The notes beneath the pieces were generated by a model, which was not told the origin of the DNA, did not search any database, and saw only the letters and a list, made by a program, of their open reading frames with translations. The translations under genes were made by a program, and so were the position numbers. 64,000 nt of DNA from Octopus vulgaris (Eukaryota): NCBI GenBank assembly GCA_951406725.2, contig OX597815.1, positions 155,310,001-155,374,000 of the forward strand. Direction: 5' to 3'. Shown in pieces: positions 2,404 to 56,436 of this stretch. The first letter of the stretch is position 1. Each line of letters starts with the position of its first letter.

Positions 2404-2451
2404 GCCTTACAGCTGTTTCCAGGATATTTATTATATCCCTTCATCGGAGAC
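2404..2451 (-). ncRNA. Minimal type I hammerhead ribozyme-like motif
   Basis: Minus strand reads GTCT-CCGATGA-AGGGATAT aataa ATATCCTG-GAAA-CAGCTG-TA-AGGC: helix I, core (U4->C variant), helix II hairpin, GAAA, palindromic helix III, UH. Confidence 0.7.
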
Positions 2452-2802
2452 GGTATGAGAGGATAGTAAAGTAATAGTTAATTTATATATGATACAAAAT
2501 GGAGAGTGAGGTGGAGGAAAGAAAATAGATGCGAGATATGTAGGGATATTGAATTTGTAGATTCATTTTTTAGGCAAAATGGTATACACTGTGTATAGAC
2601 TCGATATTTGGAATGCTCAATTTAAAATACTTTGGGATTTTACTCATAAAGTATTGGAATCTTACATGTATACCATTCTGCCTAAAAGTGGATCTACAAA
2701 TACAATATCCCTACATATCTCACATCTATTTTCTTTCCTCCACCTCACTCTCTATTTTGTATCATATTTAAATTAACTATTACTTAACAATCCTCTAACA
2801 CT

Positions 2803-2850
2803 GTCTCCAATGAAGGGATATAATAAATATCCTGGAAACAGCTGTAAGAC
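2803..2850 (+). ncRNA. Minimal hammerhead-like motif (core mutated to CCAATGA)
   Basis: GTCT-CCAATGA-AGGGATATaataaATATCCTG-GAAA-CAGCTG-TA-AGAC, with perfect GTCT/AGAC helix I. Confidence 0.62.
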
Positions 2851-3149
2851 CTTCTATCTATAAGTGTACTAACATCTACGCAGCCTTGGTTCTTTTTATC
2901 TCATTACGAAAAGAAATGAATATATATATATATATATATATATATATATATATATATATATATATATATCCCAGTTTAGACCTGTAGTGGAAAAGTCCAC
3001 TGAAACGTTGTGTCTTGACAGAGTGCAAGCTGCAAACATAGGGTAGCAGAATATTTTAAGTGTGTCGCAAAAAATAGTGCATCAGCTGGCATTGCTGCAA
3101 ACAAAACTAAACAATGCACACCGCGACAAATAATACACCCAGAATGGCC

Positions 3150-4080
3150 ACCATTGCTCCAAAGCCGTCCTTTACATCAATTCTTCTCATAAATGTCAGA
3201 GGCTTCCTACAAAACAACAAACGCAAATTTGCTTACCTGAGTGATCTTTCTGCGTGCAATCAAGAAATATGAATTGCACTTACAGCGACGCACCTGTCTG
3301 CAGACATAAATGAGGCAAAGATACACATACCAATGTATGCTGTATTCCATACAGAGAGAAGAGAAAGCAGTCGCAGTGGAGTTGTGTTGTACATCCGTGA
3401 AGATATCACACCAATAACTCTATTGTCACATTCAAACTTTATCTGTGACACTCTCATAATGCACTGAAAGCAAAGTGATGTGGTAATACGCACATTATAT
3501 CTGTTTCTTTATTATCCACAAAGGGCTAAACATAGAGGGGACAAACAAGGACAGACAGACGGATTAAGTCGATTACATCGACCCCAGTGCGTAACTGATA
3601 CTTAATTTATCGAACGCCGGAAGGATGAAAGGCAAAGTCGACCTCGGCGGAATTTGAACTCAGAACGTAACGGTAGACGAAATACGGCTACGCATTTCGC
3701 CCGACGTGCTAACGGTTCTGCCAGCTCGCCGCGCATTATATCGTCCACCTAATGCCTCAAATCACGATGATAAATTTGAGGAAAGCCGTACAATGATAAA
3801 AGAGCAAAAGTCCTCCATAGCTTGGTTCTCAAGGATACACTACTATTCAGCATTCTACCAAACAACCTCAGAGATTGGTGAGGTGTAAATGCAGAGGTTT
3901 TCAAAGAACGTCTGGGCAAATTTTTATCTAAGATACCAGATGAATCCACATCACGACAGAAGACACAAAGAAGAACGGTTCCATCCAATTCGCTACTTTA
4001 CCATAAACAGTAATACAGAATAGAAACCCAATAACACAGAAAAGCGTTGTTCCAGCATGGCCTCAGCTCTGGATGAAGCC
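3150..4080 (+). pseudogene. Internally deleted CR1-clade LINE: APE endonuclease N-terminus joined to ORF2 C-terminus and 3' tail
   Basis: Manual translation gives LLINVRGF...ALTATHLSADINEA...LYRPPN (APE-like). From ~3815 it reads LFSILPNNLRD..VFKERLGKFLSKIPDESTSRQ, matching the C-terminus of the 54948-55700 ORF. Tail ccagcatggcctcagct at ~4052. Confidence 0.72.
3502..3733 (-). mobile_element. SINE family A (central GCCTTTCATCCTTTCGGGGTCGATAAA domain) with 9-bp TSD
   Basis: Many copies in the window. Flanked by CATTATATC at 3493-3501 and 3734-3742. Interrupts the CR1 endonuclease remnant. Confidence 0.9.
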
Positions 4081-52515: not shown

Positions 52516-54353
52516 TTATATTTATATTTTTTTTATATCGCATACTTTTATAAATTCATTCAGTTTTGCTAATTTGAAATGTTAGACTCGTCATTCAAAA
52601 AGAAAAAGAGAAAAAAAAACAATAGATGAAAAGCGGTCAATATTCCTTGCTGTTCATAATATCATGAACAGTCGTGTTTTTGTGTTGTTGTTCCTATTGT
52701 TATCATATTTGTTGTGTAGGTCCGGTCAAGGCTTATGAACTGATTTCCAGTGCAGAGGTATTCGGTGGCAGTGGGCGATAAGATGGAACCTAATAATCTA
52801 TGCTGCCGTCTTTGTTCTTCTTGTTGCTTAACCCCAGTTTAGAAATCTTTTTATGGGCATCTACGACCGCATGGTCTGACGTGTCTCTTTCTTTATTTTG
52901 AGACGATGGATGTGATTTCAGGTGACAAAATGGATTTGCCTGCTATTCTTAGCAGGCCGTGCGACCATGTAGAGGATCCCACATTCGGCCTAGACTCACA
53001 TGTCTATTTGTGTAGGATTTTGTTGGAAGAATCAAGAAATTTTAAAAATATGTTTAGTCCTCTCTCTCTCTCTCTCTCTCTCACACACACACACACACAC
53101 ACACACACACACGCGCGCGAACACACACGCACACAAACAATAGCACATAACATATCGGATAAATATAGCCCATACACAGAAAAAAAAGTTACCAGCATTC
53201 TCCAAAGAATTGAACCACTATTCTGCCGTCCACTGGGCTGTTACCATAAACCACTGAACAGCTATGATACTCGTCTATTTTGTTAAAACAACCATATCTC
53301 ACACACTCTGCCATACTTTGTATTAACTGTATAGTAATCAGTGTAGCTGTCAGGTCGTGCTTCATTTTTAAACACCAGATATTTTTAAGGTTTGTTTATT
53401 GTGTGGTATTTCTATTTAGTGACAGCTTTAAAATTTCAAAGCTCTATATATACGCAAGAATTTACTATTTTTAATCTTTCAACTGAAGCACCTTTGTTGA
53501 TATCACTAGAACTATTTCTTATTTACAATCTGTTATCTGTTCTATGGCATATTCATTACCAAATTGGAGGATAAATTATTCTAACTTTATTGGTTTACTA
53601 TTTGTTGAATACTAAAGTAAGTCTAGCACCAACACTTAAAGAAACAGAAAAAAAATAATACTACCACATTAAAAAGGCGTGGAGAAAATAAAATAGAAGG
53701 AAATATATTATACTGTACAAGAAACTGTATGGAAAGGTCGGATTGTGAGATAAAAGTTGAGATAAGTCTGCGAGTCTGCCAACTGATATCAGAATACCAA
53801 ATTCAACAACAGTTACATATAGAGCAAATGATTACTTAAAATAGATTTGGAAAAGGATGTCATGTCTCGGGGCCAAAGTGTTACAAAAACAGGCATTAAG
53901 AGTAAATGTTAATTGCCCTACTACATTAATATAGAGATGCTTCTTATACTGACGAACGCATGCAAACTCACACAGAAACGCATGTACACGGTTATACCTG
54001 CGTGACGCTCACGCACGACACACATACGCACAAATAAACACAATCATACACACACACATATACACACACACATACACACACACACATACACACACACACA
54101 TACACACACACATATACACACACACACACATGCACACACATCGGGACATAGTCGAATATAGCTTTATATGTATGTATAAACATATAGGTAAATATAGTAT
54201 AGAAACCTCATAAGAAGATAGATGCATACATGCATATATATATATATACGTGCATACATACATTTGTATGTATAAGTATATATACATATGCATACATATA
54301 CAAGTGTGTGGATATATATATATATATATATATATATATATATATATACATAT

Positions 54354-55777
54354 ATGGAACGAATAGTCCGCAAGAAATTAATCATGTTCCTTGAAGAAAA
54401 TGACTTGCTGACTGACACCCAGCATGGATTTCGACCAGGTAGAAGCTGTCTAACACAGCTCCTGCAATACTATGCCTGAGTGTTAAAACAGCTACTAAAT
54501 GGTTAAGCTACTAAATGTGGATGTGATATATCTCGACTTTGCAGAAGCTTTTGATAAAGCCAACCATGGTATGTTCTGTCACAAACTGCGTGATCTCGGC
54601 ATAGGCGGAAAACTTGGAGAGTGGCTGCATAACTTCCTAAAAGATAGAAGACAGGCAGTGATGGCCAATGGAGCCACCCAAATAACAAATGGTGCTCCAC
54701 AGGGCACTGTCTTAAGGCCACTGCTGTTCATAGTGGCCCTTTCAGACATGACCTCAGTTGCTAAGATGGCCACCCTTGCTTGCTATGCAGATGATACAAA
54801 AGTCTCTCAGAAAATACAAAACCCTGCAAATATTGCACATCAGCAACGGGAGTAGGATACAATATACAGGTGGGCTGAGGACAACAACATACAGTTTAAT
54901 GCAGGAAGTTCCAAGCCCTGCGCTACCGGCACACAAAGGTAAACGACATGCAGACTGGATACACTGGCCCGAGAAGAATTGCAATTCCTGAGTCAAAATC
55001 AGTGCGTGACCTGGGCATTGATATGAGCAATGATGCATCTTTCCAAGTACATGTTGCCAATTTGGTAATAAAATGCAGATGGCTAGTTGGATGGATCCTC
55101 CGAACTTTCAGAACAAGAGAGAAGGAGACACTGATGGTCCTTTGGAAGACATTCGTCCTCATCCGCTTGGACTACTGCTTCCAACTATGGTCACCACACA
55201 ATATAAAGTTAACAGCAGAACTCGAAGCAATCCAACGAAGCTACACTAAGAAGATCGTCTCAATGCAACATATCAGCTACTGGGAAAGACTGAAAGTATT
55301 AAAACACTTCTCCCTGGAGCAAAAACAGGAGAGATATGCAGTGATATACATCTGGAAAATCCTGGAGAGCCTTGTCCCGAATTTTGGCATTGAAAGTTAC
55401 CCCAACAGCAGAACGGGGTGCCACTGCATGGTGCCAAAGATCCCAACATCACCATCAAAATACAGGACTGGATATTGCAACAGCTTGGGTTTCAGGGGAC
55501 CACAACTCTTTAATATTCTCCCTAAATGCCTGAGAGACCTGCATGGTGTGGATGTAGTTTTCTTTAAAACTAAACTGGATCTCTTCTTGTCAGGGGTTCC
55601 AGATGAACCTACCTCTCGGCAGGTAACACAGATGCGGGCAGCGGTGTCGAACTCCCTTGTTGACCAAGTGCTACGTATCAGAGGTGGTTTCACATACTAG
55701 TGTAGCTCATTCAACGGTGGTGCCCCAGCATGGCCGCAGCTTTCGGACTGAAACATTTTTAAGGATTTAAGGATTTA
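54354..55777 (+). pseudogene. 5'-truncated CR1-clade LINE (reverse transcriptase and C-terminus) between (TA)n tracts
   Basis: QHGFRPGRSC, YLDFAEAFDK, GAPQGTVLRPLLF, YADD, RDLGI, RLDYC..WSP motifs, with stops and frameshifts. Tail ends (taaggatt)2. Confidence 0.93.
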
Positions 55778-55856
55778 TATATATATATATATATATATAT
55801 ATATATATATATAGATAGATAGATAAGAAAGTTTGTTTGGTAAAGCACGTGGGTGA

Positions 55857-56436
55857 ATATATAAGAAAATAGTAAAGAGTGAAAAAACGACAGAAGGCTT
55901 AAATGTTAAAAAATATATATATTTGCGTCAAAATGTCTGGAGAATATTGGAAAAATTTTTTTCCTCCTTAAAATGACATAATTTTATAATTTTTAAAGAA
56001 ATACCGGTTTCGCAGTTAGCTCTTCAAATTTCTTGTGACTTAATGTTTATTTTTAATAACGTAATCCTTGTATTTTTGCTACGGAGACTCAACTATCCGA
56101 ACTCAATAATACAGAGAAATTCACACTAAAGGAAAAAAATTTTTTTAAGCGATTATCTCCCTTACACCGGAAGAAATCACTCACTACTTTCCCTTATTTA
56201 GAACTCTCCGTAGCAAAAATACAAGGATTACGTTATTAAAAATAAACATTAAGTCACAAGAAATTTGAAGAGCTAACTGCGAAACCGGTATTTCTTTAAA
56301 AATTATAAAATTATGTCATTTGGAGGAGGGAAAAAAATTTTTCCAATATTCTCCAGACATTTTGACGCAAATATATATATTTTTTAACATTTAAGCCTTC
56401 TGTCGTTTTTTCACTCTTTACTATTTTCTTATATAT
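55857..56436. mobile_element. Young foldback element (arms 55857-56087 / 56205-56436) with (TA)n nearby on both sides
   Basis: Arms are almost perfectly reverse-complementary. Hammerhead-like motif in each arm (55996-56034 minus, 56258-56296 plus). Confidence 0.9.
56258..56296 (+). ncRNA. Variant minimal hammerhead-like motif
   Basis: AAGAAA-T-TTGAAGA-GC taact GC-GAAA-CCGG-TA-TTTCTT. C3->U and a one-nt register ambiguity in helix I. Confidence 0.55.

Follow-up and report, generated by a model that had tools for sequence, protein, structure and literature searches.

Palindromic helix III of minimal hammerhead motifs in octopus Penelope-like elements and its probable role in self-pairing

Metazoan Penelope-like elements (PLEs) are known to carry minimal hammerhead ribozymes (min-HHRs) in their end repeats (pLTRs). 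In the accessible text of the original report (Cervera and De la Pena, 2014; PMC4209133), they are type I hammerheads with a short helix I, an extra base before helix II and palindromic positions 15.2-16.2 and loop 3; many families occur per genome, with compensatory changes and a U3-A8 variant among them, and copies form opposite-strand pairs about 100-700 bp apart or, mostly, truncated single copies. According to the same text, ribozymes of this design cleave at low levels and only in multimers. The structural features recur in the motifs described here, which lie in a 64,000-nucleotide stretch of the Octopus vulgaris genome (contig OX597815.1, positions 155,310,001 to 155,374,000; hereafter the window), and in their relatives elsewhere in that genome. 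Unlike the min-HHRs as that text presents them, the window motifs have helix II regions of 44-84 nt in families C, D, E and F, and family-wide core changes, namely U4C in A and B1, A6U in B2, and U3-G8 with a 2-bp helix II in G.

Other described systems share part of this design. A review, in its accessible part, attributes to Lunse, Weinberg and Breaker PLE hammerhead variants with a very short palindromic stem III that cleave as dimers, the tandem PLE layout supplying the partners (PMC6765202); the octopus motifs have both the stem and the layout. In the repeat-type hammerheads of Perreault et al. (2011; PMC3088659), a palindromic stem and loop III, listed for several ribozymes, likewise allow dimers such as those of avocado sunblotch viroid (ASBVd) and newt; as described in the available text they come without a link to PLE coding sequence, unlike the window motifs. 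The metazoan non-LTR retrozymes, as far as the accessible descriptions go (PMC7229834; bioRxiv 10.64898/2026.07.22.740005), are also type I and may need dimers. However, these are short noncoding tandem repeats, whereas the motifs of the window stand at the ends of coding elements, dispersed or in inverted pairs, as shown for six of the eight families, and no window motif was found within a tandem array. A retrozyme-like repeat does occur elsewhere in this genome, at L021:3082-4512 on the forward strand (L numbers denote other loci of the genome) and in two copies on the other strand; it is a tandem repeat of ~359 nt in seven copies, with a canonical hammerhead and CCGG in each unit.

The palindromic stem III and its meaning for dimers have thus been known across hammerheads since 2011 and 2014. 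To this known system the window adds family-level detail, with eight families in 64 kb, six of them tied to retrotransposon genes, and it holds a naturally occurring range of swapped palindromes and altered cores. The literature searched, from which closed journals and supplements were absent, yielded neither a cleavage test of mixed-family pairs nor a study of octopus Penelope hammerheads, and the in vivo role of PLE hammerheads is described as still open (PMC8557442).

We propose, with a probability of roughly 0.8, that the palindrome lets two identical copies on one tandem PLE transcript form a double hammerhead, which would then cleave that RNA. Each strand would supply the CUGANGA segment, helix II and GAAA of one core together with the UH site and helix I arm of the other; because each strand would thus be shared between both cores, helix III would have to be self-complementary. 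Any self-complementary word beginning with C should suffice, so that lineages could drift slowly within a limited vocabulary, with exclusion between families arising as a by-product. The copies in the window would be 5'-truncated leftovers, and since the two members of a pair are on opposite strands, no single transcript from such a pair can contain both in sense orientation. Cleavage of tandem precursor RNA by a double hammerhead is inferred to be the most likely role.

The thirteen motifs cited in a first-pass annotation of the window all have the same layout: the first helix I arm and the core are followed by helix II and GAAA, and then come the palindrome, U-H and the second helix I arm, the spacer between GAAA and UH (A15.1 to U16.1) being helix III. 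A palindrome stands between GAAA and U16.1 in all thirteen, including every one that the annotation had listed, and all the helix I pairs that it quoted are present. The motifs fall into eight families, by which they are labelled here: A (2404, 2803), B1 (4208, 44042, 51123), B2 (29140), C (29424, 29552), D (42544), E (45117), F (48615) and G (55996, 56258). Three pairs of motifs are the two arms of one insertion each, hence there are fewer than thirteen independent samples; each of the A, C and G pairs, like the D site, represents one insertion whose inverted arms are diverging. The 2.8-Gb genome searched is rich in microsatellites, and first-look candidates number hundreds to thousands per family genome-wide.

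Enrichment of the palindrome over shuffled sequence, whose absence the annotation had named as one refutation of its proposal, was found in a blind sample of 120 stretches of 10 kb (1.2 Mb) of this genome. The search descriptor allowed any 1-10 nt between GAAA and UH and was therefore blind to palindromes; it demands 4 bp in helices I and II and so misses families such as G and B2. Palindromic spacers were present in 34 of 50 genome matches, against 0 of 61 in ten block-wise dinucleotide shuffles, and spacer length was even in 47 of the 50. Nine multi-copy clusters account for 35 copies, of which 32 are palindromic (at least half the copies in every cluster), and the three others are each one transition away from a palindrome. 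Among singletons, about six of which are expected by chance, 2 of 15 are palindromic.

Comparison between families suggests what the palindrome may be for. Counted by hand from family representatives, the hexamers CAGCTG, CATATG, CACGTG, CGCGCG, CGATCG and CGTACG are six distinct words, all palindromic, with all four Watson-Crick types represented at the innermost pair; the odds of this, (1/16)^6 if the words were independent, are overstated because the families are related. In families C and F, whose reverse transcriptase (RT) fragments are 68% identical, the innermost pair has undergone a double compensatory change, and these sister families with swapped inner pairs form a natural test pair. 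Within a single strand, a 2-nt spacer cannot close a hairpin, and helix III of 4 and 6 nt is predicted at +6.0 and +2.4 kcal/mol, respectively. Since the innermost pairs cannot form in one strand, their covariation across families points to selection for pairing in dimers. Helix I (3-7 bp) also differs in sequence between families, A and E differing by a compensatory pair, and the G lineage has kept a 2-bp helix II under several loops. In fold predictions, 13 of 17 representative homodimers have helix III in register, and D, G and a sister subfamily of G fold as full double hammerheads. The earlier assignment to minimal, dimer-type hammerheads is thus supported by the anatomy of palindrome and helices and by predicted folds, cleavage itself being a prediction.

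The earlier statement that structure rather than sequence is under selection stands for source lineages, where compensatory changes separate the families and selection on helix III structure is supported, but not for dispersed copies, in which CpG sites decay neutrally. Genome-wide, the G lineage gave 1,672 pattern matches (reversed control, 0), and the two CpG decay products of its CCGG are equally common (CTGG 26, CCAG 22; p 0.67). For family C, the palindrome is intact in 8 of 15 top BLAST matches, a set biased toward intact copies, and broken in 7; every break is a transition at a CpG, and both types occur (6 G>A, 4 C>T). The family A core CCGATGA, present in 15 of 22 copies, likewise has both decay products (4 and 3 copies), and canonical-looking family A copies may be reversions. 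Selection on the dispersed copies is ruled out by this symmetric CpG decay without strand bias.

As minimal type I hammerheads, the window motifs belong to the pLTRs of Penelope-like elements, which is shown for six of the eight families. These six lie downstream of a GIY-YIG endonuclease (EN), most also with RT; in B2 only EN was found upstream, and tblastn gave RT and EN fragments for C, F, D and A. Other copies of family G carry RT (PF00078, E 5.6e-08), a cysteine linker and then GIY-YIG (PF01541, E 0.005) directly upstream of the repeat; copies of the subfamily in the window are 98-99% identical, and it has therefore spread recently. For family F, RT and EN fragments lie between two direct pLTRs 4.08 kb apart (L171), and for family C RT and EN lie between inverted repeats (L173). 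Family D has an EN match upstream in all ten loci, picked by their upstream spacer, and RT in four. Among 15 family A loci picked by EN, a same-strand hammerhead follows 1.0-1.4 kb downstream of EN in 8; in the others it is on the opposite strand (1) or absent (6). In the window itself, the 3' end of a Penelope-like open reading frame (ORF) with cysteine linker and GIY-YIG (28011..28418, +; PF01541, E 0.0016, below the curated cut-off) lies ~725 nt upstream of the B2 hammerhead and belongs to the same element, for the stretch from ORF to hammerhead aligns colinearly with two other loci, L283 (72% over 1071 nt) and L188 (74% over 924 nt). The cysteine linker of G and B2 is a feature described for Neptune and Nematis.

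The arrangement of copies is also that of PLEs. In the G lineage, 25 close pairs (within 7 kb) comprise 22 inverted pairs and 3 tandem ones, the latter with same-strand copies 3.5-4.0 kb apart, a PLE-type pLTR layout; tandem and inverted layouts match those described in PMC8557442. A microsatellite follows 79-267 nt downstream of 11 of the 13 window motifs. The possibility that family G is a DNA transposon with terminal inverted repeats was ruled out, as RT and GIY-YIG are encoded in its interior, which has lost its 5' part to a different extent in different copies.

Several observations weigh against the proposed explanation by double hammerheads in PLE end repeats. Predicted homodimers were not in register for 4 of 17 representatives (three CG-class motifs and one retrozyme-like motif). 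Regarding the coding link, GIY-YIG matches lie below the Pfam curated cut-off, no ORF was found in 1.5 kb upstream of 20 family B1 rows, and family E has a single EN fragment, on the opposite strand and without a partner repeat. Successful lineages carry core variants (U4C in A and B1, A6U in B2, U3 opposite G8 in G), which implies that cutting may be slow or dispensable. According to the accessible text of Perreault et al., U4C reduces in vitro activity but is sufficient in vivo (PMC3088659). With a PLE protein reconstituted in vitro, cleavage was protein-assisted and unnecessary for insertion, as stated in the available part of that study (PMC11167929), and hammerhead function in these elements has been called unclear (PMC8557442).

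The departures from the canonical core are widespread in the window, contrary to the annotation, which had regarded only the 4208 copy as degenerate: 8 of 13 motifs depart from the canonical fold. Five combine a canonical core with a UH site and a helix I of 3 bp or more (29424, 29552, 42544, 44042 and 48615). Four carry family-wide core variants, at 2404 (U4C), 29140 (A6U) and both G motifs, in which U3 stands opposite G8 with one extra U and a helix II of 2 bp; the remaining four have further lesions, namely G5A at 2803, UG at the cut site at 4208, a helix I cut to 2 bp at 45117 and a U-U first helix I pair at 51123. In the blind sample, U6 occurs in 17 of 19 B2 copies, with all four bases at position 7, and A6U looks fixed in B2 source lineages. 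In the G8 subfamily of the window (56265-56296), U3 faces G8 and helix I is shifted by one base; its commonest sister subfamily combines U3-A8 with a perfect helix I of 7 bp, and U3-A8 occurs in 91 of the first 100 of the 1,672 G-lineage matches. The loci behind this comparison include L263-L274 and matches on C1. The U3-A8 majority and the young U3-G8 subfamily, with the same palindrome, constitute a natural pair for asking whether cleavage matters.

The annotation had further suggested that the palindrome acts as a family-specific pairing code. Its exclusion part stood in prediction: unlike-palindrome pairs were in register in only 4 of 123 cases, at -1.7 to -3.4 kcal/mol, and as free duplexes unlike words reach no better than -3.6 kcal/mol, whereas words of 6-8 bp paired with themselves give -7.0 to -13.3 kcal/mol. 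Its family specificity did not, for one palindrome per family fails: CG is used by the B families and cluster 5 of the blind sample, CCGG by G, the tandem retrozyme-like repeat and cluster 7, and CAGCTG by A, E and cluster 8 (blind sample and window), so that each is common to two or three distinct families. Same-palindrome pairs from different families were predicted in register in 10 of 13 cases, some more stable than a homodimer. The palindrome could instead act jointly with helix I as a selected family address that prevents trans pairing between different elements. This version, which we regard as unlikely, draws on the exclusion just described, on helix I, which would be intermolecular in a double hammerhead and matches by only 0-2 bp between unrelated families with a common palindrome, and on the inner pair that C and F changed while their RT stayed close. 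Against it, besides the sharing of words, related families are compatible in helix I too (A and cluster 8 by 5 and 3 bp, D and a relative by 5 and 4, B1 and B2 by 3 and 3), and CCGG has been retained (94 of the first 100 of the 1,672 matches) across five G subfamilies whose loop II and position 8 have changed. Moreover, all 25 close pairs join copies of the same subfamily (permutation mean 9.2, maximum 17) although CCGG is common to all, which shows partner choice to be finer than the palindrome. In 9 of 24 inverted pairs, both arms have a variant that is private to them among the sampled copies (3 of these variants lie in an A/T run of uncertain alignment), and partner identity seems to be set by the source locus rather than the palindrome; different activity times of the subfamilies could contribute. 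The code is best read as leaky, with exclusion a by-product of drift under the self-pairing constraint and no need for selection on a code.

The inverted pairs also bear on a different role, in which the palindrome would be a dimerisation site joining two template RNAs and thereby allowing priming at both ends of a DNA break, while cleavage would be of secondary importance. The inverted orientation of 22 of the 25 close G-lineage pairs, the variants shared between arms, a young G subfamily that kept its palindrome despite a deviant core, and a PLE protein predicted to be a dimer in the accessible part of PMC11167929 are all in its favour. So is the finding that CTGG, which is wobble-compatible, occurs in both arms of four inverted pairs and the mismatch-forming CCAG in none (one-sided p 0.054). 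Yet Naiad elements produce inverted insertions of the same form although they lack canonical hammerheads (PMC8557442), the shared variants could stem from a single source locus as readily as from a single RNA, and the CTGG result is borderline, comprising four events without a control CpG and with C-to-U mutational bias as a possible cause; the role is accordingly improbable in our estimate. The both-arm CTGG pairs, at C1:1666858, C1:221635248, C7:85286352 and C12:9716722 (Fisher two-sided 0.11), may reflect either selection on pairing during transposition or mutational bias. A related proposal, that helix III and helix I together form an RNA dimerisation address similar to a retroviral dimer site and couple two transcripts for priming of both break ends, would explain the inverted double insertions, the restriction of both-arm changes to CUGG and the retention of palindromes in weak-core lineages; we hold it, too, to be improbable. 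Either a true pairing code or a role in template dimers would mean one more step in the mechanism of PLE transposition, but the evidence leans against both. Finally, the palindromes might be kept as DNA sites, for example as CANNTG words, which we take to be E-box-like, in a pLTR promoter. Three of the six hexamers fit CANNTG, and pLTRs hold promoters according to the available part of a review (PMC6765202). This is very improbable, as CG, CCGG, CGCG, CGCGCG, CGATCG and CGTACG do not fit, the position between GAAA and UH is fixed, and the covariation seen in helix I, helix II and the 3-8 core pair is that of an RNA structure.

The individual motifs are arranged along the window as follows. The family A insertion has inverted arms at 2354-2570 and 2684-2900, with hammerheads at 2404..2451 (-; core CCGATGA, the U4C form of the family majority) and 2803..2850 (+; core CCAATGA, in which G5A is CpG decay), both with helix III CAGCTG. 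The B1 motifs comprise a copy at 4207..4241 (+) with a canonical core, a spacer of TA instead of CG, which is palindromic still, and G17, hence without a UH site; a hammerhead at 44041..44075 (-) with a canonical core and CG; and one at 51123..51157 (+) with core CCGACGA (U4C), CG and a broken first helix I pair. A B1 subgroup, represented at 4230-4241 and L103, has G17 and lacks the UH site. The B2 hammerhead (29140..29175, +) has core CTGTAGA with the family-wide A6U and helix III CG; after it, at 29230-29270, lies an inverted short piece of a B1 3' region.

Family C is represented by arms at 29381-29533 and 29547-29699, carrying hammerheads with helix III CGCGCG at 29424..29527 (-; canonical core, 77-nt helix II region) and 29552..29657 (+; helix I of 5 bp). 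The D hammerhead (42544..42626, +) has a canonical core, helix III CATATG and a 5-bp helix I. Its other arm, at 42378..42470 (-), does read GAAA-CATG-TC, as the annotation had noted, but it is truncated before the CUGANGA core and holds no hammerhead; CATG as a second family D palindrome was ruled out, as CATATG occurs in all 21 full-length family D rows. The E hammerhead (45118..45228, -) combines a canonical core with an 84-nt helix II region, CAGCTG and a helix I of only 2 bp here, and the F hammerhead (48615..48683, -) has a canonical core, CGATCG and a 3-bp helix I. The family G arms, at about 55857-56087 and 56205-56436, hold hammerheads at 55996..56034 (-; core TTGAAGA, 2-bp helix II, helix III CCGG) and 56258..56296 (+), the family being young. 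Rfam covariance models gave 0 hammerhead matches in the window at the gathering threshold, and with the limit relaxed to E 5, the 150 of 324 matches listed were microsatellite noise, with no hammerhead among them.

Some further features were noted. Window ORFs at 13230-14366 (-) and 54900-55700 (+) have no Pfam match and no tblastn link to PLE proteins; we presume from their resemblance that they are ends of non-LTR retrotransposon proteins. A broken GIY-YIG fragment at 43401-43640 (+) belongs to another Penelope-like family, and beside it a short inverted repeat was found, with no hammerhead. Elsewhere in the genome, L057 contains a lone hammerhead-like match (- strand, at 9087) with a 10-nt palindrome between GAAA and UH, and L033, L066, L240, L036 and L200 represent two more hammerhead families with a U3-A8 core and helix III CGCG and CCGG. 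An abundant repeat with a period of 184 nt, in tandem and inverted copies at 33893-34261, 58138-58582 and 15888-17306 of the window, is probably a short interspersed element (SINE).

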